Of a DNA stretch of 35,300 nt, positions 1,031 to 30,093 are shown one piece after another (the first letter of the stretch is position 1; the number at the start of each line of letters is the position of its first letter). The notes under the pieces were generated by a model. It had not been told where the DNA came from. It did no database searches and saw nothing but the letters and a program-made list of their open reading frames with translations. The position numbers and the translations under genes are program-made. The stretch comes from Bilabrum cf. latius (taxonomy: Eukaryota): assembly GCA_965178125.1 (NCBI GenBank), contig CBCXTV010000012.1, forward strand, positions 1 to 35,300, written 5' to 3'.

Positions 1031-1038
1031 AACTGTCC

Positions 1039-5270: not shown

Positions 5271-5400
5271 TCATGAGAGCTAGACTGATGTTCACCTGGA
5301 GGTGAGGCCCTGCCTCGGCCCGACAAGCGAAGCGCTCCGTCTCCCCGCTCCACCCGGGTCGGCCCATGCGGAATCCGGCGGCCGTGGCAGTTGGCGGTAG

Positions 5401-5990
5401 TCAGTGACCCAGGATGGGCCTCGAGATGGGGCCGGCGAAGCGCTCGCCCTGTGGTCCCTGCGATAGGAAGAGCTGGGAATGGCGCCTCTTCTTTCCCTGC
5501 GTCTGCTGAGAACCGGCGGCTGCAGCAGCGTCGCGGGCTGCGGGGCTGCTTGACGCAGCCCCTGTCGCGCTGCTGGGGCCCAGCGTCCGGGACTCAGAGC
5601 CGGCGCCTGCGGCTGGGGCTGGTGCTGCGGTGCTGCTGCACGCAGCCTCTGTGGCCCTGCCATGGCCCAACGCCAGCGGCTCAGTCGGCTGAGGCTGCTT
5701 CTGTGGCGCATCGACCTTCTTCGGCAAGCCCCATTTCTTCACATAGCTCCAAGCCCGAAAGTCCGCGTCCGTCCACAAGCCCTCCTTCCAAGTCCGCCAA
5801 TCATTGCCGTCCCACTTCTGGGCGCGGCGCCAAGCTGCCTCCCACTCCTCCTTCTCTTGTGGGGTCCAGTCGCGCTCAGCCGCTGCAACGCCCTCGCCGC
5901 GGTGGCCTTCATCGACGCGGCCCGTCGTGCTCCCCTCGAGCCGAGTGACGCGGAGGCCCATCCTCGCCAAGTGAGCGCCCAAGTCGTCAT
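5401..5990 (-). pseudogene. 5'-truncated copy of the Trp-rich ORF
   Basis: About 5484-5988 matches about 7714-8220, but its start is replaced by the duplicated 3434-type block. Also present at about 26779-27366 and 33864-34450. Confidence 0.65.
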
Positions 5991-7261: not shown

Positions 7262-7423
7262 GGTCCCAGAAAGGATGCGGTGCCACCTGGCCCAACACGA
7301 GCTGGTGTACTAGGCGTGCGCGGCGCTACGCCGAGTTTAAGGTGCCGATCAGCTTCCTCTGCAACCGCTACGCCACCTGGACCCCTGCCACACAGAGAGA
7401 CGCCCGGTCCCTGCCACACAGAG

Positions 7424-7532
7424 CCACGCGGGCGGGCGAGCGGCCGCCCGCGCGGCCGGGCGGCCGGGCGGCCGGGCGGCCGGGCGGCCGGGCAGGCGGG
7501 CGGACGGCCGGGCGGGCGGGAGGGCGGGCGGC
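7424..7532. repeat. (GGGC/GGCC)n low-complexity tract
   Basis: Direct reading; also present at about 28803-28910. Confidence 0.8.
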
Positions 7533-7661
7533 TCGCGTTACGAAGGTGGGCTCCAAATCCACACTCAATTGACCTAGGCCTTCTTTTGCCGATCTCTAAA
7601 GCGATCGCACCGCGGAGTGAGCGCCTCGCGTCGCGGGGCGATGGGCTCCCGCCGTCGCCGA

Positions 7662-8286
7662 CTACTCCAGGGGCATGCGCGTCACGTCTCCTGGGGCGTC
7701 AGTTTCGCCTAGCCGCCTCTTCTTTCCCTGCGTCTGCTGAGAACCTGCGGCTGCAGCAGCGTCGCGGGCTGCGGGGCTGCTTGACGCAGCCCCTGTCGCG
7801 CTGCTGGGGCCCAGCGTCCGGGACTCAGAGCCGGCGCCCTGCGGCTGGGGCTGGTGCTGCGGTGCTGCTGCACGCAGCCTCTGTGGCCCTGCCATGGCCC
7901 AACGCCAGCGGCTCAGTCGGCTGAGGCTGCTTCTGTGGCGCATCGACCTTCTTCGGCAAGCCCCATTTCTTCACATAGCTCCAAGCCCGAAAGTCCGCGT
8001 CCGTCCACCAGCCTTCCTTCCAAGTCCGCCAATCATTGCCGTCCCACTTCTGGGCGCGGCGCCAAGCTGCCTCCCACTCCTCCTTCTCTTGTGGGGTCCA
8101 GTCGCGCTCAGCCGCTGCAACGCCCTCGCCGCGGTGGCCTTCATCGACGCGGCCCGTCGTGCTCGCCTCGAGCCGAGTGACGCGGAGGCCCATCCTCGCC
8201 AAGTGAGCGCCCAAGTCGTCGAGGTCCGTCAGCTCCCGCAATCCAATGAACAGACCGCGCGTGGCCGAGGGCTCCTCCGCCGCCAT
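7662..8286 (-). CDS. Trp-rich hypothetical protein (~207 aa), 1-nt frameshift in this copy
   Basis: MAAEEPSATRGLFIGLRELTDL...WTPQEKEEWEAAWRRAQKWDGNDWRTWKEGWW. There is an extra C near 7837 relative to the intact copy at 29662-29039. Confidence 0.6.
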
Positions 8287-8700
8287 CTGCTCGCCGCGCC
8301 GGGAGCACAAGACGCAACAACAACAACAACAAAAGGTGTCCATATGTTTGCGAGCACACGAAACATTGGCATGCTGCCGGACCGCGGTCCAGGCTCTGGC
8401 GCGGACCAGCACTCCTCCCCCCGCGGCCAAGCGCTCGCGGACCCGCATCCAATGAACAGACCGCGCGTGGCCGAGGGCTCCTCCGCCGCCATCAGCTCGC
8501 CGCGCCGGGAGCACAAGACGCAACAACAACAACTTGCTCGAGAACAAAAAATACGGAGCCCGTCCGATGAAGGTGTCCATATGTTTGCGAGCACACGAAC
8601 ATTGGCATGCTGCCGGACCGCGGTCCAGGCTCTGCGCGGACCAGCACCCCCCCCCCCCCCCCCCCCCCCCCCCCGCGGCCAAGCGCTCGCGGACCCGCAT
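8241..8700. repeat. Two-copy tandem duplication spanning the start of the Trp-rich ORF
   Basis: ATCCAATGAACAGACCGCGCG at 8241 and 8447 (period 206). In the next unit it occurs at 29617 and 29855 (period 238). Confidence 0.85.
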
Positions 8701-9500
8701 GCTGCTCGGACCTTTCCTTCCATGCCCGGCGGGTGGAAAAACACGCACTGGTGAATGGTAGGTCCCCACGACCTGTTGGCGTTCCCCCTTTCGAGCACAC
8801 CTTTCGGGGCCAAAACCCGGCCCGCGAAGCGTCCCCACGAACTGTTGGATATCCCCTCTTTCGAGCACACCTTTCGGGACCAAAATCCGGCCCCGAAAAC
8901 AAGCCCGCCCAAGGGCGCTTTGCGTCACGCTACTGTGGGGTCCTCGAGGGGCCCATAAAACGAACCGGGGACGGGGCCCGCAAAGGGTCGCGACCGGGGC
9001 CCCTGTCAGGGGGCCGTGGGCAAGACTGATGTACACCTGGAGGTGAGGCCTTGCCTCGGCCCGACAAGCGAAGCGCTCCGTCTCCCCGCTCCACCCGGGT
9101 CGGCCCATGCGGAAATCCGGCGGTCGTGGCAGTTGGCGGTAGTCAGTGACCCAGGATGGGCCTCGAGATGGGGCCGGCGAAGCGCTCGCCCTGTGGTCCC
9201 TGCGATAGGAAGAGCTGGGAATGGCGGCCCGCGGGCCTGCTGCGACTAGAGCGTCAAAGTCGACAAGGTCCCCAGAAAGGATGCGGTGCCACCTGGCCCA
9301 ACAAGAGCTGGTGTACTAGGCGTGCGCGGCGCTACGCGGAGCTTAAGGTGCCGATCAGCTTCCTCTGCAACCGCTACGACACCTGGACCCCTGCCACACA
9401 GAGAGACGCCCGGCCCCTGCCACACTGAGAGATGCCGACGGCGCGCTGCCAGCGGAAGCACATTGGGCGAAGCGGACCCGGACATCCTCGAGACCCTGGA

Positions 9501-9692
9501 GAAATCCATGCCGGCGCCATCGAAATCCATGCCGCCGCCGCCATCGAAATCCATGCCGCCGCCATCGAAATCCATGCCGCCGCCACCGAAATCCATGCCG
9601 CCGCCGCCATCGAAATCCATCCCGCCGCCAGCACCGAAATCCATGCCGCCGCCACCGAAATCCATGCCGCCGCCGCCATCGAAATCCGTGCC
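9501..9692. repeat. Minisatellite GAAATCCATGCC(GCC)nA(T/C)C, 9 units of 21/24 nt
   Basis: Units start at 9501, 9522, 9546, 9567, 9588, 9612, 9636, 9657 and 9681. One minus frame reads MDF(D/G)GGG(G). Confidence 0.95.
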
Positions 9693-9876
9693 GGGCGTGC
9701 GCGGCGCGACGAGAGGCTGAAGATGCCGATCAGCTTCCTCTGCAACCGCTACGCCACCTGGACCCCTGCCACACGGAGAGACACCCGACCCCTGCCACAC
9801 AGAAACATGCCGACGGCGCGCTGCCAACGGAAGCACATGCCGCTAGTGTAGAAGGCCCGACGCCGCCGCCGCCACC

Positions 9877-10018
9877 GAAATGCATGCCGCCGCCACCGAA
9901 ATCCATGCCGCCGCAGCCATCGAAATCCATGCCGCCGCCACCGAAATCCATGCCGCCGCCGCCACCGAAATCCATGCCGCCGCCATCGAAATCCATGCCG
10001 CCGCAGCCACCGAAATCC
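9877..10018. repeat. Same minisatellite, 7 units
   Basis: Direct reading. Confidence 0.95.
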
Positions 10019-10739
10019 GGGCCGCGATCTCCCTGCGAGGCCCGGCCTCCTGATCGAGGCTGAGCGCGGACGATAGGAAGAGCTGGGAATGGCGCGCGGT
10101 CCGCGAAGGTGTGACGCGGGCACTTTCCACGGAGCAAGGCGCATTCGGTGTCCATGCCCCGGAGCGAAACCTTTTCGGGGATACGTGCGGATGAGGCTGG
10201 CCGATGCAGAATGAATGATATCATCGAGCGCACGACCTCGCTTGCCGCACCCGTTCTTCTACGCCGCGGCGTTAGATTCGGCGAGAGCGAGCTGCAACCG
10301 CCGAGAGCGGTACTACAGCTCCGTCTCGCCAGACACGACACTCAATCAATTTGCCCACCGTCACTTTCAATCAAATCCGCTAGAATTTCCAGCGCTGTGC
10401 GGGAAACGCGAGATTCAGAACGCGCACCTCCGAGGAATTCCTGTTCGAGACTTTCCCCTGGCTTTGACCCAGCACTGGTGGTTGAGGCCACAGCGGCGGC
10501 CGAGCGGGTGGCTGCAGCAGCGGCGGCCGAGTCCGCAACGGCGGCGGTTACGGCAGGGGACCCCGCAAACCTCTCTACAGGAACAGGAAACCGAACGCCA
10601 GGTTTGCTGGGTGGAGACCCCAGAACCCTTGGCCATGAAACCTCGCCATAGAAGGAAGGAGAGGCTCTTCGGCTTTATGACTCTGGGATAGGAAGAGCTG
10701 GGAATAGCGGGCGGGCAGAAGTCCGGCCAGCCGGCCACC

Positions 10740-10846
10740 GAAATCCACGCCGCCGCCGCCGCCATCGAAATCCATGCCGCCGCCACCGAAATCCATGCCG
10801 CCGTCGCCACCGAAATCCATGCCGCCGCCACCACCGAAATCCATGC
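10740..10846. repeat. Same minisatellite, 5 units
   Basis: Direct reading; units of 21, 24 and 27 nt. Confidence 0.95.
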
Positions 10847-11694
10847 TCGCGCCACACATGCCGCTGGTGTAGCAGGCATGCGCGTTGGACACATGCCTCC
10901 GGCGCCGCACGGCTTGATCTGGGAGCGGTTGCTCGAGGCCACCATGCCGGCTCCAGTGGAGGAGGACTCGCGCGGCTGCTCTCCCCCACGTTTCGCGCCG
11001 CCTTCGCCGCAGCGCTGGGCGCCGAAACCGCTGGCGCCACATCTACGCGACGACGCTGGCCATGGAACCTCTGCAAGGAAAGAAGGAACGGCGTTTTCGG
11101 CACTTGGACTCTGCGAGCCAGGCGCCGTTCACAGTTACGGCCCCGGTGCATGAAACGAGGCTGGAGCTCTTGGCCACTTTGGGCCAAGGATTGGCTATGA
11201 GGGTTGGGTGCAAGGGTCCTCGTGCCGCTCTGGCTTTCGTTGCCGCGAAGTGGTCGAAAAGCGGCCGTTTTCGGGAGCGGACTGGCGCCTCGCGACCTGT
11301 GGGACCTATGGCTCCGGTACGAGAAACGGACGGGAAGCGAACGACAGCACCTGGGCAGGGTGGCGGGGCACGGACTGCAAACGGACGGGAAACGAGCGGC
11401 AGGACCAGCAAGGCGGAGAGGGGCAGGATGCGGACTGGCCATGGAACCTCTGCAAGGAAAGAAGGAACGGCGCTTTCGCCACTAGGACCCCCCTGCCCAC
11501 CGGAAGGAATTGGTCTTCTTCGCCACCCACCGATGCTAGCCTCCCAAGCATTCCCGCAGCTGGCCCATATAATACAACGTCATCGCCGAGCTGGGGAAGA
11601 CCAAGCAGAAAGTGTTCTGCGAAAGGTTCTAGTTCAGCCGGCGGCCGCCGAGGGCAGTGAGTGAGCCACGCCGGCCGGCATGCTCGCGGCGATT

Positions 11695-11930
11695 CTACTT
11701 CTGTACGACTTTCCGCGGCTCGTCTAGAGGCGGACGGACCACTTGAGCTCTCAAGGCGGACTCCGAAAGCTCTTTCGAACAGCGATCCAGGAATACCTCG
11801 CACAGCGGGCTCACTTGGATCGCCCTGCCGCAGGTCACACACGGTTTGACGCTTGACCGGCGAGCTCTACGGCGCCTTCCGACGAGTCGGAATTCCTCCT
11901 CGTTTAGGTAGTATACGAGAGCCGAGTGAC
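11695..11930 (-). other. Possible short coding segment with a basic patch and CxxC
   Basis: YYLNEEEFRLVGRRRRARRSSVKPCVTCGRAIQVSPLCEVFLDRC; no clear ATG. Repeated at about 33089-33325. Confidence 0.3.
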
Positions 11931-12339
11931 GCGGAGAGCAGGTGGAAAAAAAAACGCACTGGTGAATGGTAGGTCTGGGGCTGGGCATCGCCGGACCGCG
12001 GTCCGGGCTCTGGCGCGGACCAGCACTCCTCCCCCCGCGGCCAAGCGCTCGCGGACCCGCATGCTGCTCGGACCTTTCCTTCCATGCCTGTTGGCGTCCC
12101 CCCTTTCGAGCACACCTTTCGGGGCGAAAACGCGGCCGGCGAAGCGTCCCCACGAACTGTTGGGGGACACCCTTTGGCCCGCAGATTTCTGGGCCAAATT
12201 CCGGACCCCAAAACAGGTCCGCCCAAAGCGTTTGTGGGCCGGGCTCTCATGCGGTTCTGTCGGGACCCAGAAAAGGCCCGCGACTGGTCCCAGTACCGGG
12301 GCCGCGTTCGGGCCCCCTTTCAGGGGCCATAGGCGCCTG

Positions 12340-12870
12340 AGGGAAATCCTGATGAAACGAAACTGGACGGGAAACTGGACTGAAAATTCATGCGACCAAG
12401 GCAGCGAGTGACGGGAAACTGCCGCGCGAAGATGCTGAAGCTTCGCACATGAAGGGAAAACCCGTATGGGGTTCCGGCACTGGGGACTCTCCCTGGTGCA
12501 AGCCGACGACGATATGTCGGAGATGACTGAGGGTGGACGCATGGCCGCTGTACTGCACAGGTAACTGACACGAACACTCTGCATGACACATGAGTTCGCA
12601 CACTTTGTCCTCGCGAGGCCCGCTCAGCCGCCGCACCCCATGCTGTCCGGCGATGCCGCCTCGCCCCCAGGCCCAGCGGACTGCCTCGGGCGGTCGCTCA
12701 TGTCCTACGCCGAGCGCGCCCCGCGCCCGACCGGAAAAGCTCTCGGCCTCAGCTTGCGACGAGTCGACGCCCATGCGGAGAGCGACTGTGCAGCAAGTGG
12801 GGGCACTCTGAGACCCAGGACGGGCCTCGAGAGAAGGCCGGCAAAGCGCTCGGCCGTTGCATCCTGCCGG
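12340..12870. repeat. Diverged direct repeat of about 13790-14330
   Basis: Shared anchors GGAAACTGGACTGAAAAT, GCGCGAAGATGCTGAA, GCTGTC.GGCGATGCCGCC and GGGCCTCGAGA...AAGCGCTCGGCC. Confidence 0.8.
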
Positions 12871-12907
12871 GGCCTCGGCTCATGGGCCGAAGCCCCACTG
12901 GCGCGGC

Positions 12908-13141
12908 TCAGCCGAGCGGAGCGACGTCGCGGGGGTCGACGGCGATCGCTTGCGAGACGCTGAGGATTTTCAGCTCCAGGACTTTGTGCCTCTCCGGACC
13001 GCTCCCTTCCGGCTTCACGAGCAATTGCATGAACCATTCCCCATCTTCGAAGTTCACCGAGAGCACCTGGACCTCGCTGTTGACGAAAAAGCGGCTGTGC
13101 TCCAAGACATCCGCGCGCGAGGACGGCGCCGGGAGCGACAT
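12908..13141 (-). CDS. Hypothetical 77-aa protein
   Basis: MSLPAPSSRADVLEHSRFFVNSEVQVLSVNFEDGEWFMQLLVK... has a composition free of GC bias and is framed by the shared upstream and downstream modules. Confidence 0.55.
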   Translation of the reverse strand: MSLPAPSSRADVLEHSRFFVNSEVQVLSVNFEDGEWFMQLLVKPEGSGPERHKVLELKILSVSQAIAVDPRDVAPLG

Positions 13142-14380
13142 GACTTCGCCTGGCGCGAGCCCACGCCGCGTGTTCGAACCACCGGGACAGCTGACACCCG
13201 GGTTACTCCACGAAAGACACACTTATGTATCGAGAAGCTGAAATGCGAGAAGAACATGACTCGCACAGAAGCCGACAAGATATGCTCAAACCTGAGGTCG
13301 ATGGGAGAGGCTTGCTGTGAACGCCGCGGCCACCAAGGGGCCGCAGCCAGCCAGCAACGCTTATCCACCCAGGTCTCCGGACACACCCGGCGCCGGTCCT
13401 CCTCCGTTTCGTTGCCAAGCCCTTGCGCTCGCGGTGCGCGGCGAAGCGCTCGCGCTGTCCATGCAGCCCCCTCGGGTTGCACCCTCGCCGGCGCGGGGCC
13501 GGCCACAGAAGGCGCCCGCATGGGACGACCTTTCGGCGCGCAGGCGGCCCCGACAATGGGGCCGGAATTTGGCCCCTGAGTGTGCGCGCCAAAGGGGCAA
13601 CGCCAGTTGTTGGCGTTCACCCTTTCGCCGGCACACTTCGGGGCCAATTTCCGGCACCCAAAAAAAATCCGCGCAAAGCCATTGTGGGGCGAGCTGGTAT
13701 GCGGTTCCGGAGGGGCGCAAGAAGCCCCCCCGACAGGTCCCGGTACGGGGGGCGCGTTCTGCCCCGCTTGCAGGGGCCATGAGCGCCTGAAGAAAAACTG
13801 ACGTAAGAAAGCACGAAAGGAAACTGGACTGAAAATCCATGCAACGACATCCGCGACTGATGGGAAACAGCTGCGCGAAGATGCTGAACCTTCGCGCATG
13901 TGGACAAAAACGCGCATGGGTCTCCTGTAGTCGGCACCCTACCTGGCGCAAGCCCACGACGCTATGTTGGACAAGGCTGAAGAAGGACGCATGTCCGCTG
14001 TACTTGTATGCTCACTCTCACGAACAATCTGCATGAGCACATGACATCGCACAATTTGTCTCTCGCATCGCGCCCTCAGCCCCCGCATCCCAAGCTGTCG
14101 GGCGATGCCGCCGCGTCCCCAGCCCCCGGCCGAGTGCCTCGGGCGGTGGCGAATTTCCTACGCCCGGCGAACCCCGCGGCCGACGGGAAAAGCTCACCGT
14201 CTCAGCTTGCGCCTTGTGGACGTGCATGCGCAGTGCGGCTGTCAAAGAATTGGAGGGAATAAGAGACCCACGACGGGCCTCGAGAAAAGGCCGGCGAAGC
14301 GCTCGGCCTGTGCATCCTGCTTTCGGGATGCCGCCGGCAAGACGCTCGGCTCCCCACCCCGGCGGCCAAGCGCGCGCCCC

Positions 14381-16180
14381 TCAGGGTTGGGTCACGGGGA
14401 GGCACTGCTCGACATCCTCCACCCACATCGGCCTCCTGACACGCTGAAGGTACGAGTTCTCTGTCAACCACTCCGCGTCCGTTTCGCTCATCTTCGACAC
14501 CTCCTGTCTCCAGTTGTTTGTGGAGATGACGAGTTTCTTGCCTCCCACGAACACGCGCCGCGCGTGACAATTGGTGGCGCTTTGGTTGATGCCGATTGGG
14601 ACCGACTGGGCCTGAAATAATTTTTTGTTCGCTATGACTTGCGCGGGGCACGCTTCGTCAAATAGCAAGAGCTCATGTGTCATTTCGCAATACCCCTCAA
14701 AGTTCAACGGAACATTGCCGCTGCAGGTCATTTCGAAGACCTGGCCCTTGGGCACTAACGCCCGGCAGTACGCTGTTTTCCCGCGCTGCGATGGGCCGTC
14801 TAATACTAAAAAGTAATATCTGTCGCGCACAAATCCGTATTGGGACACCCACTCTTCGATCAAAGGGTACCGTCTCCACGGTTTTTTCACCTCGGACGAG
14901 TTCGCGGCGCGATATTCCAGGTAGCGTTCCATTGCCTCTTCTTGCCGGGCTTTCGCGTACTCCGTCAGCCATAGCAGATTCCGAGTGATGCCGTTAGGCA
15001 CTTTCCTCAGTTCCGCTCTCGCGTCAGCTATGGTTATTTTCCCGCTTTCTAGATGGCCTAAAATCCAGGTCCCAGTCACCTGGAAATCCTTATGGGGCTC
15101 ATGGGACCCTGCGGCCATGAGCGAGGTCACCTTCGGCATCAACAGGTAATACATGCCCGCGAAGTGGTTCCGACCAGAGCGTATGAGACGCGTGCAGTCC
15201 CCACTGTGGAATGGGGCTCCCCCTCGGAAAAGCGTGTCGTCGACTTTCACTCTCATTTGCCTGCCGCCGTAGGCGGCCACAAACGCATGGGCATGTACCC
15301 TCGTCGCCTCCGCCCCGCTCCGGTCGCAGAGCTCAAGACACCAAGCCATAAAACACTGCGGGTATTTCTCCCGGAATGCACTGGCCCAGGCCTCGAGGTC
15401 CGACCACAGAGCGAGGACGCGCGGATCCTGCCGCAGCCGTGCCGTCTCCGCCTGTCTCTCCTTTGCCACCTTCTCGAAACAGAAATCAGCAAGGGTCAAA
15501 ACCGCCGGGGCTTCCCCGGCCACCCGCATCGGGTCCGGCAAAGCGCTCGGATGAGACCCACCTTCCTGTTCCTCTTGTACACTGAGAGGCGAAGCGCTCT
15601 CTCCTGGAACCGCTGGCCGTTGCTCCTGGCCTGCCGCATGCGCCCCGGAGAGAAGCCCCCAACCCCCTTGCCAAGTCCAGACCGCACTGCGCATGCGGTG
15701 TATCCCCTCTTCGCCCCGGGACCTACCGGCGCTCAGCAACCGCGCAGCGATCTCGGCGAGGTCTGGGTACGCCCGGACGAATTTCGTCAACCGGTCCTTC
15801 CGCTGCGCGTAGTCCAGGTCCTTCAAGCACCAGTATTTCGTCATCGCGCTTTGCCGTTTGAATGTGGCTCTCCGATACCCCGTCTTCCTCTGCCACCAGT
15901 AGACGTACTTGTTGTGGGCCCGCTTGCGGTCCGCGCTGTTCAAAGGCTCGTCGGGGTCCTCGAGCTCCGCCAAAATGGCTTCGAGGTCGATGTCCACTTC
16001 TGCTTCCGCCTCAACATTTCCAGGCGCGTCCGGCTCGACCGCGGGCTCCGGCGCAGACGCGGGCACCTCCACAAGCTCCATCGCCTCGATGGCCGTCACG
16101 CGCCGGCGCTTTGGCGGCCGGGGATCCGAGGGCGTGCCATGCAAGGCTCCCGCGCGCGCCGACGTCGCGGGTTCCGCCAT
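14381..16180 (-). CDS. rep: CRESS-type replication initiator Rep (HUH endonuclease + SF3 helicase), 599 aa
   Basis: Motif I-like AVWTW, motif II VHAHAFV, motif III-like MYYLLMPK, Walker A LVLDGPSQRGKT, Walker B LLLFDE, motif C LVISTN, and C-terminal EWLTENSYLQRVRRPMW resembling gemini/genomovirus Reps. Start placed at ATG 16180 (MAEPAT); the ORF is open to 16492. Confidence 0.92.
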   Translation of the reverse strand: MAEPATSARAGALHGTPSDPRPPKRRRVTAIEAMELVEVPASAPEPAVEPDAPGNVEAEAEVDIDLEAILAELEDPDEPLNSADRKRAHNKYVYWWQRKTGYRRATFKRQSAMTKYWCLKDLDYAQRKDRLTKFVRAYPDLAEIAARLLSAGRSRGEEGIHRMRSAVWTWQGGWGLLSGAHAAGQEQRPAVPGESASPLSVQEEQEGGSHPSALPDPMRVAGEAPAVLTLADFCFEKVAKERQAETARLRQDPRVLALWSDLEAWASAFREKYPQCFMAWCLELCDRSGAEATRVHAHAFVAAYGGRQMRVKVDDTLFRGGAPFHSGDCTRLIRSGRNHFAGMYYLLMPKVTSLMAAGSHEPHKDFQVTGTWILGHLESGKITIADARAELRKVPNGITRNLLWLTEYAKARQEEAMERYLEYRAANSSEVKKPWRRYPLIEEWVSQYGFVRDRYYFLVLDGPSQRGKTAYCRALVPKGQVFEMTCSGNVPLNFEGYCEMTHELLLFDEACPAQVIANKKLFQAQSVPIGINQSATNCHARRVFVGGKKLVISTNNWRQEVSKMSETDAEWLTENSYLQRVRRPMWVEDVEQCLPVTQP

Positions 16181-16407
16181 GGCCCGCGCAGGCCCCGGGC
16201 GGGCCCGTCGCGCGCCTGGGGCGAGGGGCTCCGCATCGCGCCTGGACCGGGCGGCTATGCATGCGAAACAAGGCGCGTCTTGCGAAAAACCTCGATTTCC
16301 CCCACAATACCAGCCTTTGGCGGCGCGGGACCCTGGAAATTGCGGCACGTCCCGGAGAAGGCAGATGGGAAAGTGCATTTTTCGCAAGCCCTCTAGGCGA
16401 AACGGCA

Positions 16408-16690
16408 GGCTGAATCGGAGGCTGACACTTCCCGAATCCTTCCCCCCATATTGTTGCGCGATTTCCAGCCAATTCAGCCTCGGATGACTCAAATCCTTTT
16501 AAATATTAACACGCGAGGTGAGTCAACCAAGGCTGAAACTCACGACATTATGGGGGAAAGGAGTCAGCCTCGAAACGGGCACATCCGGCTGAATCCTTCC
16601 CCCCATATTGTCGTGCACATTTCCGCCCCGGGCGATTCAGCCAATCGCGAAACACCATAAGATCATGGCTCCAGCACCCCCTGAATCGGA
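16408..16690. promoter_or_regulatory. Putative rolling-circle origin: stem-loop plus iterons
   Basis: Arms 16473-16491 and 16519-16537 are complementary at 17/19 nt around a 27-nt loop containing TTTAAATATTAAC. Repeats of 25-29 nt lie at 16434 (direct), 16541-16569 (inverted) and 16587-16615 (direct). Confidence 0.65.
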
Positions 16691-16799
16691 CAAATGCCCA
16701 CCACATCCGGCTTCTCCGCTCGTTCCCCCGGCTAGGAGCCTCATTTTGGCGCGGTTTCCACATGGCTGCCGGCTCCTGCCCGCCCTGCCGTCGCGCACT

Positions 16800-17205
16800 T
16801 TCCGGGCCCGCCCCGGCCGCGGACCCCGTCCCCGCATTGGCCGCGGCCCACATGGCTGGCGACGGCCCACATGGCTGGCGGCGGCCCCGCGCCCCGCCGT
16901 CGCGCGCCGTCTGGGCCGGCTCTCCGGCCCGGCGTGCCCGGCCGGGTCCCGCCCGGGACGCGGGCCGCGTCCCGGCCGAGGCCGGGCCCGGCCGGGACGC
17001 GGCCCGCGCCTCCTCCCCCCCCCCCCCCCGCCCGGCCGGGACGCGGGCCGCGTCCCGGCCAGGGCCCGGGCCGCGGCCCGGGCCCAGAGCGGGTATCTGC
17101 CCGCGCCCGGCTTCGGCGCCGGGCTCGGGCGACGCGCCCGGGCCCGGCGCAGAAGCCGGGCCCTGCGGCCCGGGCCTCAGCCCGGGCCGCCGGCACGCGC
17201 CCCGC
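16800..17205. repeat. Extremely GC-rich tract of nested palindromes and short direct repeats
   Basis: CCGGGACGCGG(G)CC x3, CCACATGGCTG x3 (first copy just left of the tract, at about 16758) and many CCGGGCCCGG. Confidence 0.7.
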
Positions 17206-17653
17206 CCCATCTTTGGCGATGCCGTCCAATCACTCAAATCCAAAACAGCCAAGGGCACGATCCCCGCATGCCGCCCACCGTGGCCTTTCCCACCTCGCTG
17301 TCGCTTCTGCCCGCAATGTCACGACGACCGCAAAACAAGTCGCTTCACAGGCGGACCTCTCAGGTCCCACAGCCGCACTCACGAGCGTGGCAACCCGCAT
17401 TCAGCCACGAAAATGCAACGAAAGCGAAGGCAAAAATGCAAGCAACGCGAACGGCCTGTTCCACAACGGCGCATGCGAGAACTCCATGGGCACTGCCGGG
17501 CCACTGCACATCCCTTGGGACCCGCTTTTCGGGGCGCACCGGAAAAAAATAGAGGGCCGGACCGGTCCGCGGCGTTTTGCCACGGGCGGCTTTGGCGCCG
17601 TCGCGGGACAGACGTCGGCGCCAGGCGCCAGGGGGGGGAAAGGCGTAAGCGCC

Positions 17654-18073
17654 TCACTCGTCGCAGGCCCTCGGCGGCACTTCGCCGCCCACCAATCCGG
17701 CGGCCAGGCGCGCGCCCTCGGCGGGCTCCGTCGCGCCCGTCGCCGCGGCAGGTGGAGGCGAAGCGCTCTCCCCGGCGGCGGCGCTGCCCGCGCTTGAAGA
17801 ACTCGGCGCGGCCTCCCGTTGGTCCTTCCGCATGAGAAGCACGCTGACGAGGTCGTCGTCGCTCATCAAGCGCGCGCGCTTCTTCAGGCGGCTCTGGCGT
17901 TTCCTCGCGTTCTTCACCTGGCGGGTCAAGTCCTTCTTCACCTTGTTCGCCGCGATCTGCTCCTGCTTCAACCTCTCAATCTCCGCCCGGGCCGGATCCG
18001 CCGGCAGCGCCTCGAAGACGCTTGCCATCGCCGCGGTCACGACCGCGGAGTCTCCGGAGCCCGCGGACGCCAT
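17654..18073 (-). CDS. Small basic coiled-coil protein (139 aa)
   Basis: RAEIERLKQEQIAANKVKKDLTRQVKNARKRQSRLKKRARLMSDDDLVSVLLMRK. The ATG at 18073 overlaps the transposase 3' end by 37 nt. Confidence 0.7.
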   Translation of the reverse strand: MASAGSGDSAVVTAAMASVFEALPADPARAEIERLKQEQIAANKVKKDLTRQVKNARKRQSRLKKRARLMSDDDLVSVLLMRKDQREAAPSSSSAGSAAAGESASPPPAAATGATEPAEGARLAAGLVGGEVPPRACDE

Positions 18074-20037
18074 GGCAACAAGCGGCGCCCGATGGGCAAG
18101 CGGCGGCGGCCAAGGGCAAGGGAGTCGTCCTCTCCGACGGCTGCGGCGACTGGGGACGCGGCCACTCTCTCGGGCGCCACCACATGCGAGCTGCTCCGCA
18201 GGCGGCCCACCCAGGGATTGGACCCTCCCGCTCGTTCTGCGGCGGCGTAGGGCGCGGCAAGCGCTCGCGCTTCTTCGCCCGCCCTGGCACGAGGATATCC
18301 GAGTACAAGGGGAAACAAGCGATCCACAGGGATCATGCGCCCGCGAGGGAAGATAGACTCGAAGCCGGCCAGCGCGGGGAGGCAGCCGCCGTCGAGGAAG
18401 CCCTCGGGCGCCGGGCCGAGCTCCTCTAGGAATCGGTTCGACGTCGGCCACGCCCCATGCAAGCCGCAGAGGGCGAAGGCGTTTCGCCAGTCCCGGCCAC
18501 TGACCACCCCGGTCACCGCGTCCGCGAGGACCGCCAGGAGATCCTCGATGGGGAGCTCGGCGTCGCGGCGACCCAACTGCTGCCCTTCCATGAGGACCCG
18601 GATGCGGTGCTTTAGGGGAGCGAAGACGGCCACATCGCATGGTTGGAGCCACCGCGTCGCGAGCGCCGGCAAGAGGTGGTAGTGGCATCCGGCGCGCGCC
18701 ACCGCGGCGGCGACTTCCTTCGTCGTGTGGACCGGGCAGGCGTCCATAGAGAGGATAATGCAGCGATCCAGTGCGACGGGCCTGAGGCTGGCCTTCAAGA
18801 CGTCCATAATCTTCGCGAACCCGGCACCGTCCAGCCAGGAGCTCTTCTGTCGCAGCAGGACGACCCGGTCGGTGCGGCCAGCGTTGAAGGTGGCCGCGGC
18901 AGCAGCAGGGACGAGGCGATCGTTGACGACGAAGATTTGCGGCAGCAGGGGTTGCACTGCCGCATCGTCGCACACGAAGCAGATGTAGGAAAGCGCGCTC
19001 CGTCGAGCGCGCAGGGACGCTCTCTGTTCCGGCGGCTGCCGGCGGCCGGGAAAGCGCTCGGTCGCAATGGCGCCGGGCCTCGGCGGCGGGAAGAACTTGA
19101 CGGAGCTCTCGTCCATGTTAATGCGCAGAACAGGGCGGCCCCCGGCGCAGCGGCGGGCGAGGAAGCGGTCCCACTGGAATGTCGCCAGGGCCTGTGCGAG
19201 AGCCGGGTCCCCGGCGGGCCCGCCGGAAAAAAAAAGGGGCCGTTTTTTTGGCCCCGAAATCGGGGCCGCCTATTAAAATCACAACACAGGGGGGGCCAGA
19301 AAACGGCCCCTGTTTTTTCAGGCCGGCCCGCCGGGGGACCCGCTTTTTGGCCGCCTCGGGGCCCGGTTCCCGCGAGCCTTCGCGCGCAAAGTGTCCCGGT
19401 CCAGGCGCGGCCCCATGGTAGGCGCCCGCAGCCTCACTCGCCAGCGCCGCCGCCAGCGCAGGATCCATTTCCGCGGCGGCCTCTCAACACGCCCCCCGAT
19501 GTGGCCGCCGGCCCCAACGGCGGCGGAGGGCCCGCCGGGGAGCGCTCCGCGCCATTGCCGCCAGAGGTATGTGTAGGTCGGCGCGAGGCCGGCGTCCATG
19601 TTCAATCGGGCCACCCACTCGCACAAGCTGCGCTCCCGGAGGAAGCGTTGCGCCGCCACCGCTGTGCGCTCGTCGGGAGGCCCGGCCACCGGCGCCGCCT
19701 GGGGCACCGCGCCGGGCGCCTCCGGATCCCGCGCAGGCAGGGCCGCGGCATGCGGCTGGGGCGAAGCGCTCCCAGCGTCGCCGGACCGCCTCCGCTTGCA
19801 GTCACGCTGCCGGAGGTACTCCGCTCGGGCCTCGGGCCCACCGGGGCCCGGCAGGGACGCCGCAATGTAATCCGCGACGGCCTGTGTGCGACTATCTCGC
19901 TTCGGCCGCGGCCGGGCGGCGCTGCGCTTCTGCTCCTTCGCGCGGCGGAGCGCGGCCGCGACCGCGCGGGCCTCCGTCGCAGCCCGCTCCCGCTCCGCGA
20001 CCAGGTCCTTCAGGGAGGCTCGAGGCACCGCCGGCAT
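18037..20037 (-). CDS. pogo/Tc5-like (DDE_1) transposase, two exons (20037-19378, 19191-18037), ~604 aa
   Basis: Exon 1 has a CENP-B-like HTH (ERSLCEWVARLNMDAGLAPT...KWILRWRRR). Exon 2 has catalytic INMDES, ILSMDACPVH and WLQPCDVAVFAPLK, with 35 residues between the second and third Asp. The splice is in frame. Confidence 0.88.
19192..19377 (-). other. Predicted GC-AG intron (186 nt) in the transposase
   Basis: AAG|GC donor and CAG|G acceptor give DTLRAK-ALATFQWDRFL...RINMDES in phase 0. Confidence 0.8.
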
Positions 20038-20439
20038 CGGCGAGGACTGTATTGCGGGGCAGGGCGCCGACAAAAGTCACGACGGTGGAACTGCCATCGT
20101 TGCGCTCGCGCAATGCCCCTGCAACATATGAGCAAAAAGGACGCGGATTCCTCCTCCGGACACTCGCGCGTGCGGCCAAGTGCTTTGGGCCCCACCCCGA
20201 ACCCGGGGGGGGGGGGGGGGGGCGGGAGAGCACAATGCCAATGAGCTTGCGGGCCAAGCGCTCCGCGACACGGTCTCTTACTGAAACACCGACGGCGACC
20301 TGTCTGTGGAGGTCAAGCGCTCTCCTCGAAACGCGCCGCAAAGCAGCGCGCCGGAACTCTGGGCGATCCAGCGCCTAATTCCCGGGATGCTCAGCCCAGT
20401 ATCCTCATGATCGCCCTCGCATCAACAAGGCGACGGGCG

Positions 20440-20935
20440 CTGAAGTGAAACACCCTGCACTGTCTCGGTGGAGGCGAAGCACTCTGCGGGCAAATGCGAC
20501 ATGTGACGAGGCAGTGTCATGACAACCTGTTGCCTGTCAAGATGCCATGCCGAATCCCTCTTTGATGCCCCTGCGCATACCACTCGACGGTCAAATATCG
20601 GCCTCGAAACTGGCCTGGGCCATGACGAAAACAAAGCGACAAGCACTCAATTGAGACATAATGCAAACACACATTTTCATGCGAGGGGATGTTCCATTTC
20701 AACCCCTTGCCTGTCAAGGTGCCACATCTAGTCCCTTTTGCAAGCCCCTTCACATGCCAGAAAACGACCCTGATCGTGCTCCCGCGACGGGAGGCGAAGC
20801 GCTCACTCTTCGGCGCGGCAAAGCGCTCGCGCGGGCGAGGCGAAGCGGCCTCGGGCGGCCAAGCAGCGGCCGCCGCACTCATCCGGAGGAGAGCTCCTCG
20901 TCGGAGTCGAGGCCCCCCTGCGCCCAGTCGACGCC
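20440..20935. repeat. Diverged direct repeat of the unit's left end (about 495-770 and 1243-1400)
   Basis: Shared AAATGCGACATGTGA and GACAAGCACT...TTGAGACA...TGCAAACAC anchors, plus a near-identical DWAQ(E/G)GL(E/D)SDEELSSG* gene end. Confidence 0.85.
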
Positions 20936-21650
20936 CAAGAAGGTGGCAGATCTCTCTTGGGGAAATGCCATGATCAGACTGGAAAACCATGAATGAAAAG
21001 AACACGGAAATGTCGAACTCTGCAGAAATGACGAGACCCTCAAAGAAATACAGTGGTGTGTCTGAAGCCCAACAGTTCCACTGAATGGTTTCCGGACGAG
21101 ATCATACACATTGCATATGGCATCACAGTTAACTTCGCGTTTAAAAAAAAACCAACCAAAGACCACCCGTCCACCCAGGGGATGTGTGACAATTGTGCGT
21201 GTGACAAAAGGCTGCGGCTCCTACAGCATGCTCACCTCCCGGCGAGCGTTGTTGGATACGACGCATACCGGCGAACTTTGTCTCGCTGGGGCCTCACCCG
21301 GCAGACACGCCTGGTCGGCTTGCGCCCAAGCGCAACGCACACGCGCAACTCGGTGCACGCGGGAAACAGGTTCGTGCAGGCGTTGGAGACGCTCTGTGGT
21401 AGCGCGATCCAATACATGACGCGCTTGGGACCCCCTCCTCATTCTTACGCCGCCGTTACGACAGAGCGGCTGGCAGCACATCCTTTCCTTGTGCGCTGCA
21501 AGGCAACGCGGCATCCGGACACCGTTGAGAAGCCCCCGCACATACTTGCTGCCCTGGGCCGACAGAGCTTGTGGACGCTCCGGGCCGGCAACGGTGGATC
21601 CTCGCTCAGAGCACGGAGGGCTGGTGCACGGTCCGAAGCGCAGGCGGTCG

Positions 21651-21765
<115 letters not shown>

Positions 21766-22759
21766 TCAGACTATCAGCGTCCGAGGACGCAACCTCGAAA
21801 GAGGCATCTATGATGATTATGATCTCGTTGGGAAACTCTCAAATGGAAGCCCAAGAAAATACGACCGCCAAGTCATAAGGCGACAGTGCCAAACAGAAGA
21901 CGGGCACACACATGAAACACCGAGCACTGTCACATTGGAGGCCAAGCGCTCTCCGGCCAAATGCGACATGTGAGTACGTCGTGTCATAGCATCCCCTTAC
22001 CTGTCAATGTGCAAGGCGAGTCCCCCTCTGGTGTCCCTCAGCCTACCATTCGACCGTCAAAGAACCGCCTCGGAGCTGGGCTGGGCCTTCACTTCAACAT
22101 AGGGACAAGCACTGACTTGAGACACGCTGCAAACACATGTTGTTCATGCCAGTAGGCTGTGCCATGTCAACACCTTGCTGCCAGTGAGGATGCCCATCCT
22201 CTTTCGTTCTACAAGCCCCTGCGCATACCACTCGACCGTCAAAGATCGGCCTCGAAGCCGGGCCCGGCCTTCACAGCAACATAGAGACATCCACGGAAAT
22301 GAGACACCCCGGAAACACACATTATTCATGCGAGCGGCCTGCGCAATGTCCACCCTTAGCCGGTCAAGGTGCCATGCCGAGTCACTTGTTCAAGCCTGCG
22401 CGCCTGCCACTCGACCGTCAGAGATCGCCCTGGAAGCTGGGCAAAACTGTCCCGCGCCCGGGCCTGGCCATGGCCCGGGCCCGAGGGCCCGGGCGCCAGG
22501 CCCGGGCCAGAGGCCGGCCCGGGCACCGGCCCGGGCCCAAAGTTTGACGGCACGAGCAAAGATGTCGGACCTTACTTCTGCGGGCGGGACGTCCGCCCTG
22601 TCGGCCCGCATGGGCAGTTCAGTCCGCCGCCCGGGCGCTTCCCGGGCAGAGGGCGCGCGCTCCCGCGACGGGAGGCGAAGCGCTCACCCTTCGGCGCGGC
22701 AAAGCGCTCGCGCGGGCGAGGCGAAGCGGCCTCGGGCGGCCAAGCACCGGCCGCCGCAC

Positions 22760-25478
22760 TCATCCGGAGGAGAGCTCCTCGTCGGACTCGAGGCCCTCCT
22801 GCGCCCAGTCGGGGCCCAAGAAGTAGTCCCACAAGTGCCGGTTGTAGAGCTGCTTGTAGAGCAAGGCCTCGTGAGGCGCCGCCGTCCGGGCGTCGTCGAC
22901 CTCGAGCGCCACCGGCTTGTACCAGGTAGTGTCCGCCTTGGTGTTGGTGGGGGGGGGGAAGAGGGGGGAAATGGGTGGGTGGGCTTTGTGGTCGCGGGTG
23001 GGGCTGAGCGGGGGGTTTCTGGGGAGGCAAAGCGCTCTCCCGGTGAGAGCAAAAATCAGAACGCCAATGACCGCAACCGCCTCGGCCAACTCAGCGAAGA
23101 CCCGGCGCTGGTAGACCGAAATGGCCTGCCGGCGCTTCCGCGCTTGCTCCTTCGTGAGGCGATGGACCACCTCGTCGAGCGCTCGCTCGTCACACACAAG
23201 CTGCTCCGCCAATCGGGTGATAGGGCTGGGTCTCCCCCCCGGGGTGGTGCCGTAGCCCTCGGGATCCTCTCTGAGCATCGCCGGACCGCGGTCCTGGCTC
23301 TGGAGCGGACGAGCTCTCCTCCCGCGCGGCCAAGCGCTCGCGGACCCGCATGCTGCTCGGACCTTTCCTTCCATGCCCGGCGGGCGGCCTGCTCTTGCTG
23401 GTCCGGGCTCACAGGCGGGCCGATCCATTGACCATGCCAGTCAACCCACCATCTCCGCCACAGCCTCTCCGACCAGGCCGGGTCGGAGACTGCCGTCGGG
23501 GGGAGCTGCGTCTTCCAGTGCAGCCCCGGAGCGCTCAAGTTGAGCTTTTCAAGCCACAGCGGTGGCCCTTTGTCCGTCCACCCGCAGAGGTGCCGCTCGC
23601 CCTTTGCGCAACGGAACCCCTCCCCGACCCAGCTATTCTTCCAGCTGGAGTTGCGGACCCATCGGCCTTTCTCGCACCCGCTCACATGGGCTTCGTACGA
23701 CCCGGCGCTCGGCCATAAATAGCAGGCACCTACGGTGTTCTGCGCCCCGCCGGCGAGCCACTGGGCCAGGATAATGTCCAGGTGATTGGGCGTGGACCTT
23801 TCGAGCACCTCAAGAAAGGCCGCCGCGAAAGTTTTCGTGAAGGCGACGAGGGTCGTGGCATGGCCCGGCTGCCACTTCCTATGGGATTGGCCCTCCCAAC
23901 AAAGCCACACGAAGTTCCCACGACCTTGGCGCGCCGCTGCGGTCGCGATGTGGATCAGATCCACGAGCTCCTGCGACGGTTTCGCCTTCGGAGGCTTGTG
24001 CTTCCATCCCAGGAAGCACCTTTGCTGCGCCTTTTTGGACGCTTGGGACACCCGGAACTTTTTCGCCTGCCGCTCGTGCCCGTCTGTGCCCGGCGCGGCC
24101 GGCGGGTCTCTCCCCTCGGTTTTTTTCGGAGGTCCCAACGGTCTGGGGCGAAGCGCTCCCAGCTGAGCCCGGCAAAGCGCTCGGGGCGGAGGGCGTCACT
24201 TGGCCGACGTCGTTTTCCTGTTTTTCCTCCTTCGTCGTGGGTGCTGTCGGCCCCGCAGCAGCGGGTGGGGAGGAGGCGGGAGGCGAAGCGCTCTCCCCGG
24301 TTCGCTCCGGCGCGCTCGGTTGCGCGCTCTGGGTTCCCGAGGGGGCGCCCCGAGGTTCCGACCCCGCCCCTGTCGCCGGCTCTTCCCTCGTCGACACGAA
24401 GAGGGCGCGGACGTCCTCGTGGAGCTGCTGCGAGATCGTCTTGCCAGCGAAGCTGCCCCAGTGTCGGTTACTGTCCGCCCAGCAATCCTTCTCGTACATG
24501 CGGTAGTCGCCTTCGGCCAGGATGAACAACGTGTCTTCCGGCAGCCGGGGGTCGACGCAATGCCGAAGGAGTATGTCCTTGGATGGAAATGGTTATCAAA
24601 ACAGGCCTGCAGGCCCCCCTCCCCCCCCCCAAAAAAAAAAGGCCTCGAGGCCCCAAGATTTTTCTCTGGTCTAATCGTCCTTCCAGAAGTGGAAGACGGC
24701 GTGCCTCCTCTCGCAAAGCGGGCTCTCTTGACGCCGCCCGTCCCACCATTTCCACACACTGGCAGGGGCGGAATCTCATCGACATGTACGGGAGGGTCGC
24801 GACCTCGGCTTCGTCCTCGTGGGTGAGCGTCATCACCTTGAGGCATGGCTCGGGTGTCCAATGGCCCCGGGGCTAAGCGCTCCCGGTTCACCGGGCCACG
24901 CGCTCGCGGCGCTGCCGGGGCCAAGCGCTCCCGGCTTCACTGTCGCCTTCTCGGGCCCCCGCACCCCGCGCCACTTCCCACCCGGCCCGGCGCTCCCACC
25001 CCAAGAAGGCCCTCCGCCCGTCCCGCCCTGTTCCCGGATTCCCCCCCGCCCCACCGCCCGCCCGGCCCGGCCCGAGGGAACGGACCCACCCAAGACATAT
25101 GCACGACAACAACATGAACCTGCACTGGCCGCCCTTCGATGACCTTCAACGTCGACTGCGGGTTGAACCTCGCCGGGGCGCTGTTCAACTGCGTCCGCGC
25201 GTACTCCGCCGCGAAGAACTGCAGGTCATCATGGATCTTCTTCGCCGCCGGGCTCGTCGGGTCCAATGCTTTCCCCATCAGCTTCTGCCACTCCTGCTCA
25301 GTGTAGGCCTCGGCGCCGCCGGACTGGTAATTCGTGACTTCGCGCACGAACGCCATCCTCGTCTCCTTCTCCGCCTCCTCCCATCGCTTCTGGCGCTCGT
25401 CCGTCGTGAGGAGGTTCTCCCTCTGGTGCCGGCCTTTCACCTGCTTCAGCAGTCGTCGCCGGACCCGCCGGACGCCAT
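22760..25478 (-). pseudogene. Second copy of the GT25-like gene, with different frameshifts
   Basis: Near-identical to 1346-4083, with indels near 23320, 24125, 24540 and 25450. Confidence 0.5.
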
Positions 25479-25678
25479 GGCGGGGCGCGCTCGCGCCCCA
25501 AGGGGTCCACTGGCGGCTAAGCGCTCGCCGTGCCGACGCGGCTGAACGATGGCCACGAGCGCGGGCGGAGGCGACTCACCAGACACCGGACTTTCCTTGT
25601 CATGCAAGATGCCCGGGAAGCCCCCGGCATGGACGGCAAAGCGCTCGCCCTGTGCCGGGGTGATCTCCGTCCCTGAGA

Positions 25679-26037
25679 TCATGGCCAGAGGACACCCTTC
25701 TGCTTCAAATTCACTTCGCGCAAGCGTGCCCCCCCCCCCGGCATGCCCACACCAAGCCATGCACACCGCTGCTGGAACTCCCAGCAATCCCTCCCTGCGA
25801 CGGGCAACTTGGCATTCGGATGCCTCCGGTCCAACCACAGCATGTAACTTCGCAAGCGTTTGTCTTGCGTCTCGAAATTCCATGTCTCCCCGGCTGTACC
25901 GGCTCCAAAGGCCCCATCATGCCATCGAGCAACCATGGCTGTCCAGGACCCCGCTTTTGCACCCATGCTAGGTACTGCCTCAGGCCCTCCGGGCCCGCTC
26001 GCCCGGAGAGTTCGCCCATGAGCCCTGACTGCGCCAT
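25679..26037 (-). pseudogene. MAQSG ORF copy with a frameshift
   Basis: 1-nt deletion near 25890 relative to 4285-4644. Confidence 0.55.
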
Positions 26038-28161: not shown

Positions 28162-28518
28162 TCATGGCCAGAGGACACCCTTCTGCTTCAAATTCACTTC
28201 GCGCAAGCGTGCCCCCCCTGGCATGCCCACACCAAGCCATGCACACCGCTGCTGGAACTCCCAGCAATCCCTCCCTGCGACGGGCAACTTGGCATTCGGA
28301 TGCCTCCGGTCCAACCACAGCATGTAACTTCGCAAGCGTTTGTCTTGCGTCTCGAAATTCATGTCTCCCCGGGCTGTACCGGCTCCAAAGGCCCCATCAT
28401 GCCATCGAGCAACCATGGCTGTCCAGGACCCCCGCTTTTGCACCCATGCCAAGTACTGCCTCAGGCCCTCCGGGCCCGCTCGCCCGGAGAGTTCGCCCAT
28501 GAGCCCTGACTGCGCCAT
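28162..28518 (-). CDS. MAQSG ORF copy with two compensating indels
   Basis: Same N- and C-termini; the internal segment is in a shifted frame. Confidence 0.45.
   Translation of the reverse strand: MAQSGLMGELSGRAGPEGLRQYLAWVQKRGSWTAMVARWHDGAFGAGTARGDMNFETQDKRLRSYMLWLDRRHPNAKLPVAGRDCWEFQQRCAWLGVGMPGGARLREVNLKQKGVLWP

Positions 28519-30055: not shown

Positions 30056-30093
<38 letters not shown>

Follow-up and report, generated by a model that had tools for sequence, protein, structure and literature searches.

A candidate replication origin with long hairpins upstream of a divergent CRESS-type Rep gene in repeat-rich DNA

The replication origins of CRESS-DNA viruses, whose circular genomes of single-stranded DNA encode a Rep, carry a nick motif in a hairpin loop, with the canonical forms TAATATT^AC in Geminiviridae and NAGTATT^AC in Circoviridae and Nanoviridae. 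The loop is conserved among CRESS origins whereas stems and repeats are element-specific, and geminiviruses have an origin that overlaps the promoter of Rep. Among transposons, Helitrons encode a two-tyrosine (Y2) Rep fused to a superfamily 1 (SF1) helicase. Replitron transposases are described as having no helicase domain and as carrying short direct terminal repeats, and for both Replitrons and Helitrons a role is ascribed to a hairpin close to one end (PMC10288648). The same source describes plasmid origins of the pCRESS and pE194/pMV158 types, where Rep binds sets of direct repeats that accompany a nick hairpin (PMC10288648). Here we describe a cluster of hairpins and repeats at positions 16408-16690 of a 35,300-nt stretch of DNA from Bilabrum cf. 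latius (contig CBCXTV010000012.1, analyzed over its positions 1 to 35,300 and called the window below), which lies directly upstream of a Rep gene on the minus strand. A previous inspection of the letters (the original prediction) had proposed the cluster as the origin of this Rep with a variant nick site, and the core of that proposal, an origin-type hairpin belonging to the adjacent Rep, is supported by the sequence analysis presented here.

At the centre of the cluster lies hairpin A, whose 19-nt arms (16473-16491 and 16519-16537) enclose a 27-nt loop (16492-16518, AATCCTTTTAAATATTAACACGCGAGG). It had been predicted as a 19-bp stem with an AT-rich loop; the hairpin was found where it had been placed, but the stem is imperfect, with 17 of 19 positions paired (89%). 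The proposed minus-strand reading of the loop was confirmed as TAATATTTA at 16508-16500 (plus strand, 16501-16509: AAATATTAA). This is the Rep-sense strand, and in its fold 18 nt of hairpin A are unpaired, TAATATTTA among them. The nonamer matches TAATATTAC at seven of nine positions on either strand, the conserved nonanucleotide type being NANTATTAC. The loop is also as unusually AT-rich as had been claimed: AATATT occurs once in the 35,300 bases, in this loop, and 11-mers made entirely of A and T start at six places only in the window, including a poly(A) tract.

Hairpin B lies directly to the right of hairpin A and pairs two 29-nt arms (16541-16569 and 16587-16615, 90% complementary) around a 17-nt GC-rich loop. 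Its arms are copies 2 (inverted) and 3 (direct) of a long repeat. Three copies had been predicted, and a search with the 21-mer GAATCCTTCCCCCCATATTGT at up to 3 mismatches recovered exactly these, at 16434 (plus strand), 16545-16565 (minus strand, 3 mismatches) and 16591 (plus strand), with no match in any of 100 shuffles (0 expected). The alternative hairpins that these copies were thought to allow were likewise found: besides hairpin B, copy 1 can pair with copy 2 (16434-16463 with 16536-16565, 30 nt, 77%), which nests hairpin A in a 132-nt hairpin at 16434-16565. Short GGCTGA/TCAGCC-like repeats had been put at about eight, which is about right, as seven exact copies were counted in the 301 nt of 16400-16700, against 0.35 expected if the 41 copies of the window were evenly spread. 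All three GGCTGAATC sites of the window fall within the same 301 nt, and the two TGACTCA/TGAGTCA sites of the window are both in this cluster, one in each arm of hairpin A.

Folding as single-stranded DNA (ssDNA) had been suggested as a check, and the hairpins do fold. For the whole 301 nt, energies of -56 and -60.8 kcal/mol were obtained for the plus and minus strand (z = -5.0 and -4.8), and 0 of 100 shuffles were as stable. In the same strand order, hairpin A alone gave -14.8 and -15.8 kcal/mol (z = -6.3), hairpin B -26.3 and -27.1 kcal/mol (z = -8.7 and -7.6) and the nested form (16428-16570) -27 and -32.5 kcal/mol (z = -4.6 and -6.1), with no shuffle equally stable in any of the three. Among the 25 longest of 58 short-range inverted-repeat pairs found window-wide, a list for which hairpin A is too short, hairpin B was the sole entry without CCGGGC-type low-complexity sequence.

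The adjoining gene had been called rep, and this was borne out by its motifs (Table 1), a confident structure model and fold matches. Its stop-to-stop frame (14384-16498, minus strand) is the longest in the area and, with codon-position GC of 0.62/0.49/0.71, has one of the few coding-like signatures in a window of 65% GC that shows no GC bias at third codon positions and is almost without coding signal or recognisable domains. In an alignment of 70 sequences the Walker residues (K, D/E) and the motif C Asn of the superfamily 3 (SF3) helicase are invariant, and there is a single invariant tyrosine (Y1), unlike in two-tyrosine Reps. Besides the HUH nuclease and the SF3 helicase, the protein has a helical linker and an N-terminal extension of ~150 residues (~150-250 across family members). 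Near its N-terminus it carries PPKRRRV (16097-16117, minus strand), which we take to resemble a classical nuclear localisation signal, and the family consensus has an RRRL..K stretch near the N-terminus as well.

An AlphaFold model based on the 70-sequence alignment reached a predicted local distance difference test (pLDDT) score of 85.9 and a predicted template modelling (pTM) score of 0.74. This alignment was required, as the model from a 4-sequence alignment (pLDDT 38.7) was not usable. Foldseek searches of BFVD with the model gave at least 500 matches at E <= 0.001, of which the best 50 were listed. The top matches were full-length CRESS-DNA-virus Reps (E 2.5e-12 to ~1e-9, 333-372 aligned columns), including Genomoviridae, Cruciviridae, Kirkovirus and many uncultured viruses, and the proteins named among the best 50 were mostly CRESS Reps, parvovirus NS1 and a single papillomavirus E1 being present as well. 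Among PDB structures, the best match was Rep68 of adeno-associated virus (AAV) 2 bound to its DNA site (9bc5, E 1.2e-6, 437 columns), and further fold matches were papillomavirus E1, Vientovirus Rep, the Rep ATPase of porcine circovirus 2 (PCV2) and AAV Rep40. The feature neighbours of the Rep in a protein atlas were Cressdnaviricota Rep clusters (0.96-0.97).

Sequence searches found many relatives and no named family. Pfam gave no family for the Rep at E <= 0.01 and weak P-loop matches alone at E <= 10; none of the 70 relatives matched any Rep model (Gemini_AL1, Viral_Rep, Rep_OBD, RNA_helicase, Parvo_NS1), and searches of PDB sequences with the Rep and with the 70-sequence profile returned P-loops only. 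A word-based protein search found four relatives, none of them named, and when 1.84 billion representative proteins were searched with a profile, 2025 were retrieved at E <= 0.001 and 526 at E <= 1e-30. Database relatives are annotated as 'hypothetical protein' at most and lie mostly on contigs of 1.2-6.6 kb, a range that fits small replicons, transcripts or fragmented assemblies equally. A tblastn search with the Rep matched none of 72,556 plasmid records and none of 50,697 phage records. A literature search, with incomplete coverage of subscription journals and hence weak as evidence, yielded no account of this Rep family or of a long hairpin with a TAATATT loop. Judged by its motifs and predicted structure, the neighbouring gene is a real CRESS-type Rep with HUH and SF3 domains, from a large, divergent and apparently unnamed family.

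A second proposed check was conservation upstream of homologous rep genes. A scan of genome contigs based on the 4-sequence alignment gave one locus (L001) from 16 pattern matches, and in this one relative (1/1) the loop motif recurs. L001 is a 3984-nt contig filed under a metagenome-assembled genome (MAG) of Planctomycetia. Its Rep open reading frame (ORF, 471-2387) encodes a protein that shares 31% identity with the window Rep, and its codon-position GC (0.62/0.50/0.70) shows the same signature. The strongest structure of the contig is a hairpin at 1-167 with 71-nt arms, a single mismatch (99%) and a 25-nt loop (-96 kcal/mol, z = -23); the mismatch speaks against an artefact of pure fold-back. 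The hairpin has its apex 387 nt upstream of the Rep start codon, compared with 325 nt for hairpin A. The loop, CTCCGTGTTTAATATTAAACATCAA, holds the sole AATATT of the 3984 nt. When the two loops were aligned in Rep-sense orientation, a score of 10 was obtained against 2.9 +/- 1.5 for shuffles, which 6 of 5000 reached, and the string common to both reads CTC.CGTG.TTAATATT.AA. The stems show no similarity, and the local motif repeated near the apex differs by element, being GGCTGA in the window and GGGTCAAC (four copies) in L001. A loop kept constant between elements that differ in stems and repeats would be expected of the origins of HUH Reps and not of a chance palindrome.

The window and the L001 hairpin arm also have a 12-mer in common, CTCTAGGCGAAA (16391 in the window, position 33 in L001); in both, GG comes 5 nt later and the local repeat after it. 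The 12-mer is not enriched in the window when up to 2 mismatches are allowed, and as a shared element it is suggestive only. When all L001 ORFs of at least 50 aa were compared with the window by tblastn, the Rep alone was common to both. At the other end of L001 a 12-nt echo of the stem (CCAAAGTTGTCC, 3842-3853) and a pair of 26-nt direct repeats within 3923-3984 were seen; such ends would suit a linear element as well as a circle that was opened at its hairpin. Although the MAG to which the contig belongs is filed as bacterial, its AT-rich upstream region is not bacterial-looking.

Closer relatives of the window Rep were found as well. A 13.9-kb contig (P0003) carries a translated upstream region nearly identical to 16181-16489, the first repeat copy included. 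The two differ at 3 amino acids, start codon aside, in ~103 upstream codons, and the gene of P0003 has frameshifts. The element is consequently at least duplicated, and P0003 is too recent a copy to inform on constraint. A further relative, P0004, is 64-71% identical to the window Rep, varying with the alignment, and is a paralogue or an orthologue.

The reading we favour, with a probability of roughly 0.6, is that 16408-16690 would be the cognate replication origin of an integrated Rep-encoding element. In the mechanism that we infer for this possibly still active copy, the binding sites of Rep oligomers would be the repeats with GGCTGA that surround the hairpins and make them up, either as duplex or as hairpin B; these comprise the short sites and the units of 21-29 nt at 16434, 16591 and, inverted, 16545. 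Hairpin A would be extruded or melted, Tyr345 would cut the single-stranded loop A at or beside TAATATT and become covalently linked to the 5' end, and the free 3'-OH would prime rolling-circle synthesis. We favour a cut on the Rep-sense (minus) strand, since it is in this orientation that the loop most resembles that of L001.

A plan like that of CRESS origins is supported for the region, with iterons, namely seven GGCTGA sites and three 21-mer copies in a span of 250 nt, as putative Rep-binding sites beside a stem-loop and a TAATATT core in the loop on the Rep-sense strand. As in CRESS-DNA virus origins, the AT-rich loop and the repeats beside the stem lie directly upstream of a Y1 HUH and SF3 Rep, and the loop is conserved between relatives (one relative, L001) that differ in stems and repeats. 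The analogy with geminiviruses that had been drawn for the locus holds for this general CRESS/HUH plan but not for its details, given the 7/9 nonamer, the 27-nt loop, the long repeats and the missing Gemini_AL1 match. A geminivirus origin proper was rejected, as there is no exact TAATATTAC in an 11-13-nt loop, no match to Gemini_AL1 and repeats of 21-29 nt, not 5-8 nt. A nick-type hairpin together with sets of direct repeats is also seen in the plasmid origins of the pCRESS and pE194/pMV158 types; unlike these, the present locus has no tblastn match among plasmids or phages and lies in a eukaryotic-looking context (110-nt poly(A), DDE_1 transposase, motif like a nuclear localisation signal).

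Several observations weigh against an origin or set the locus apart from CRESS-DNA viruses. The geometry is atypical for CRESS origins, with a 27-nt loop, stems of 19 bp (71 bp in L001) and repeats of 21-29 nt beside a 7/9 nonamer. Unlike CRESS-DNA virus Reps, the window Rep has ~600 aa, a long N-terminal extension and no Pfam Rep match. Unlike a CRESS-DNA virus genome, the locus is internal to a linear, repeat-rich DNA of 35.3 kb with no sign of a circle, and no capsid-like ORF was recognised by Pfam in L001 or, to either side of the hairpins, in the window. The loop is called conserved on the strength of one locus. In the opposite orientation the similarity of the two loops is weak (score 7 against 3.7 +/- 1.6 for shuffles, reached by 271 of 5000), and a local alignment of the upstream regions of the window and L001 scored 24, within the shuffle range (mean 19.9, sd 2.1, maximum 28). 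The L001 Rep has HAR in place of HUH and its ORF ends shortly past motif C, so that it may be a decayed copy. Base 1 of the L001 contig coincides with the base of its hairpin, which is possibly an assembly effect. Finally, it is equally possible that the AT-rich motif, which reads TATTTAAA on the Rep strand, is used as a TATA-like promoter element.

This last point leads to a reading of the cluster as promoter or regulatory region of the Rep gene, in which TATTTAAA would be TATA-like, the repeats would be sites for transcription factors or autoregulation and the hairpins would play no part in replication. At 250-500 nt upstream of the likely start codon, the cluster is on the side where a promoter belongs, and it is among the very few AT-rich spots in a window of high GC. 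It also has the TGACTCA/TGAGTCA pair to itself (2/2 window sites), which resembles basic leucine zipper (bZIP) sites of the AP-1/GCN4 type. A promoter, however, does not need a TATA-like motif at the apex of a hairpin, and L001 keeps the motif there on a 71-bp stem with a Rep only 31% identical. The repeats, moreover, form inverted pairs whose folds as ssDNA have z of -6 to -9. We regard a promoter without origin function as unlikely. Since origin and Rep promoter overlap in geminiviruses, a promoter is compatible with an origin at the same place.

Somewhat less likely still, in our view, is the recognition end of a eukaryotic rolling-circle transposon of Helitron- or IS91-like type, with the Rep as transposase and the hairpin as the site where strand transfer starts or stops. 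An element in chromosomal-looking repetitive DNA, the further copy P0003 on another contig and the paralogue or orthologue P0004 would fit such a transposon. So would the left flank of the gene, where a ~710-nt repeat (12158-12867 and 13608-14320, 77% identity) has its second copy end at 14320, 64 nt past the Rep stop codon; the similarity of the Rep 3' flank to this local repeat module stops there as at an insertion boundary, and 14320 could be the left boundary of the Rep element. Against this, the window revealed neither a second terminus nor a target-site signature nor any non-autonomous copies that could be defined, and small replicons or transcripts would also have the size of the 1.2-6.6-kb contigs on which most relatives lie. 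Known HUH transposons of eukaryotes are like this locus in being Rep-encoding elements of eukaryotic chromosomes with a hairpin near one end, but differ in architecture. Helitrons were excluded by the one invariant tyrosine and SF3 helicase of the window Rep, in place of Y2 and SF1, and Replitrons, which lack a helicase, by its SF3 helicase.

An integrated rolling-hairpin telomere of parvovirus type, in which Rep would nick the stem beside the repeats, as at the AAV terminal resolution site, and not the loop, appears more doubtful again. The Rep does have AAV2 Rep68 on its DNA site as best whole-length match among solved structures, long hairpins with putative Rep-binding repeats are common to both systems, the 71-bp-stem hairpin of L001 starts at contig base 1, and hairpin A can nest in the longer 132-nt hairpin. 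A telomere would nevertheless be expected in a second terminal copy. Elsewhere in the 35.3-kb window there is no copy of the 21-mer, GGCTGAATC or AATATT, and this lack of a second cluster argues against a pair of terminal hairpins; L001 has a mere 12-nt echo near its other end. Moreover, it is the loop and not the stem that is conserved between the window and L001, and in BFVD CRESS Reps are matched more strongly than parvovirus NS1. A foldback, miniature inverted-repeat transposable element (MITE) or local duplication without function beside a fossil Rep gene would suit a window rich in duplications and palindromes, in which the Rep copy may be the fossil of an old integration, but is very improbable given that the other palindromes listed (25 longest of 58) are low-complexity GC repeats whereas the hairpins here are of complex sequence, that the repeat motifs occur nowhere else in the window while the loop recurs in L001, and that the 599-codon Rep frame is unbroken and keeps every catalytic residue.

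Table 1. Positions of the Rep gene, its motifs and the elements of the candidate origin in the window.
Feature	Position	Strand	Details
Rep gene, 599 codons and stop	14381..16180	-	likely start ATG at 16180 (MAEPATS...)
SF3 helicase core	14513..14797	-	Walker A GPSQRGKT 14774-14797, Walker B LLLFDEA 14651-14671, motif C VISTNN 14513-14530
Motif III AGMYYLLMPK, catalytic Tyr	15131..15160	-	Y345, K350 (fragment Y196, K201) invariant in 70/70; helix in model
HUH motif RVHAHAF, residues 294-300	15281..15301	-	H296, H298 (alignment H147, H149) invariant in 70/70; beta strand in model
Rep motif I AVWTWQGGWG, residues 166-175	15656..15685	-	T169 (alignment T20) invariant in 70/70 relatives
Box CTCTAGGCGAAA	16391..16402	+	first GGCTGA repeat 5 nt further on
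Two direct GGCTGA repeats, 16408 and 16420	16408..16425	+	motif count
Long repeat copy 1	16434..16479	+	21-mer core 16434-16454, on through 16470, then to CCAGCCAATTCAGCC
Hairpin A, proposed nick hairpin	16473..16537	.	TCAGCC/GGCTGA at stem base, TGACTCA/TGAGTCA in each arm
Candidate nick motif TAATATTTA	16500..16508	-	in loop A, aligns with L001 loop
Hairpin B	16541..16615	.	repeat copy 2 core 16545-16565, copy 3 core 16591-16611
Long repeat copy 3, ends in ATTCAGCC	16591..16642	+	direct partner of 16434-16479, 81% over 37 nt
CTGAATCGGA, outermost repeat of cluster	16681..16690	+	exact repeat of 16410-16419

The surroundings of the locus are dominated by repeats. A 12-kb direct repeat (338-12354 and 21754-33753, 97.9% identical) is preceded by leaders that are 100% identical (1-160 with 19370-19529 and 160-242 with 21571-21653), and these large copies and leaders on both sides leave the Rep gene and the hairpins in a stretch of ~7 kb (12355-19369). 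Beyond 33753 the second large copy continues differently, with a 99% copy of 5075-6838. It also contains a 2041-bp segment (19530-21570, junction at window position 160, GC 45-58%) that is found in the second large copy only, holds pieces ~75% similar to 485-1028 and 21899-22442 and shows no clear target duplication; it is probably an insertion of another repeat element. At 21654-21763 there is a pure poly(A) tract of 110 nt, its counterpart in the first copy (243-350) being ~95 nt of unique sequence and A11. The tract looks like a retroposition tail or an unstable homopolymer.

Upstream of the Rep gene and on the same (minus) strand, the remnant of a pogo/Tigger-type DDE_1 transposase was recognised at 18040-19269 (Pfam E 2e-5, partial domain). 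An overlapping minus-strand frame (17657-19117) has a basic coiled-coil segment at its end (17654-18000), and the DDE_1 gene is probably frameshifted. DDE_1 was the sole match in Pfam searches of first 15 ORFs and then 68, taken from the surroundings of the locus and from the left two-thirds of the window, and scans of the window for Rfam families and tRNAs gave no match. Satellites with units of 24 and 45 nt (GAAATCCATGCCGCCGCCGCCATC) occupy 9501-10025, 10734-10846, 30917-31436 and 32124-32236 and would read as Gly-rich repeats on the minus strand. The poly(A) tract, the DDE_1 ORF, the satellites, the lack of tRNA and Rfam matches and the motif resembling a nuclear localisation signal would point to a eukaryotic chromosome. 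A bacterial source of the window was rejected on the poly(A) tract, the DDE_1 ORF, the lack of GC bias at third codon positions and the near absence of recognisable genes over 35 kb. The bacterial and archaeal genomes scanned for relatives do not include the window, as it was not returned by that scan. To the right of the hairpins (16754-17190), three CCACATGGCTG repeats at 16758, 16848 and 16867 are followed by dense GC-rich palindromes of CGCGGGCCGCGTCCCGGCC units with a 44-nt period and arms of up to 82 nt. A further, imperfect hairpin (19201-19344, arms of 45-52 nt, 77-78%) with A/T runs in its GC-rich arms stands just before the second large repeat copy.

The Rep and its candidate origin would provide a pair of enzyme and substrate for a large and uncharacterised branch of rolling-circle initiators. 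If the locus is a fossil, it still dates and documents the integration of this Rep lineage. If the origin is functional, the plan of CRESS origins tolerates stems, loops and repeats much longer than in textbook cases, such elements can sit intact in GC-rich, probably eukaryotic, chromosomes, and a new sequence-specific HUH nuclease is at hand with its target. A bolder possibility, which we consider improbable at present, is that of a live and capsid-less lineage of Rep replicons or transposons resident in eukaryotic chromosomes, very large and undescribed, that would form a third kind of HUH mobile element beside Helitrons and Replitrons. If this were true, a CRESS-type Rep with a long N-terminal extension would act on an extended hairpin origin and multiply inside chromosomes.

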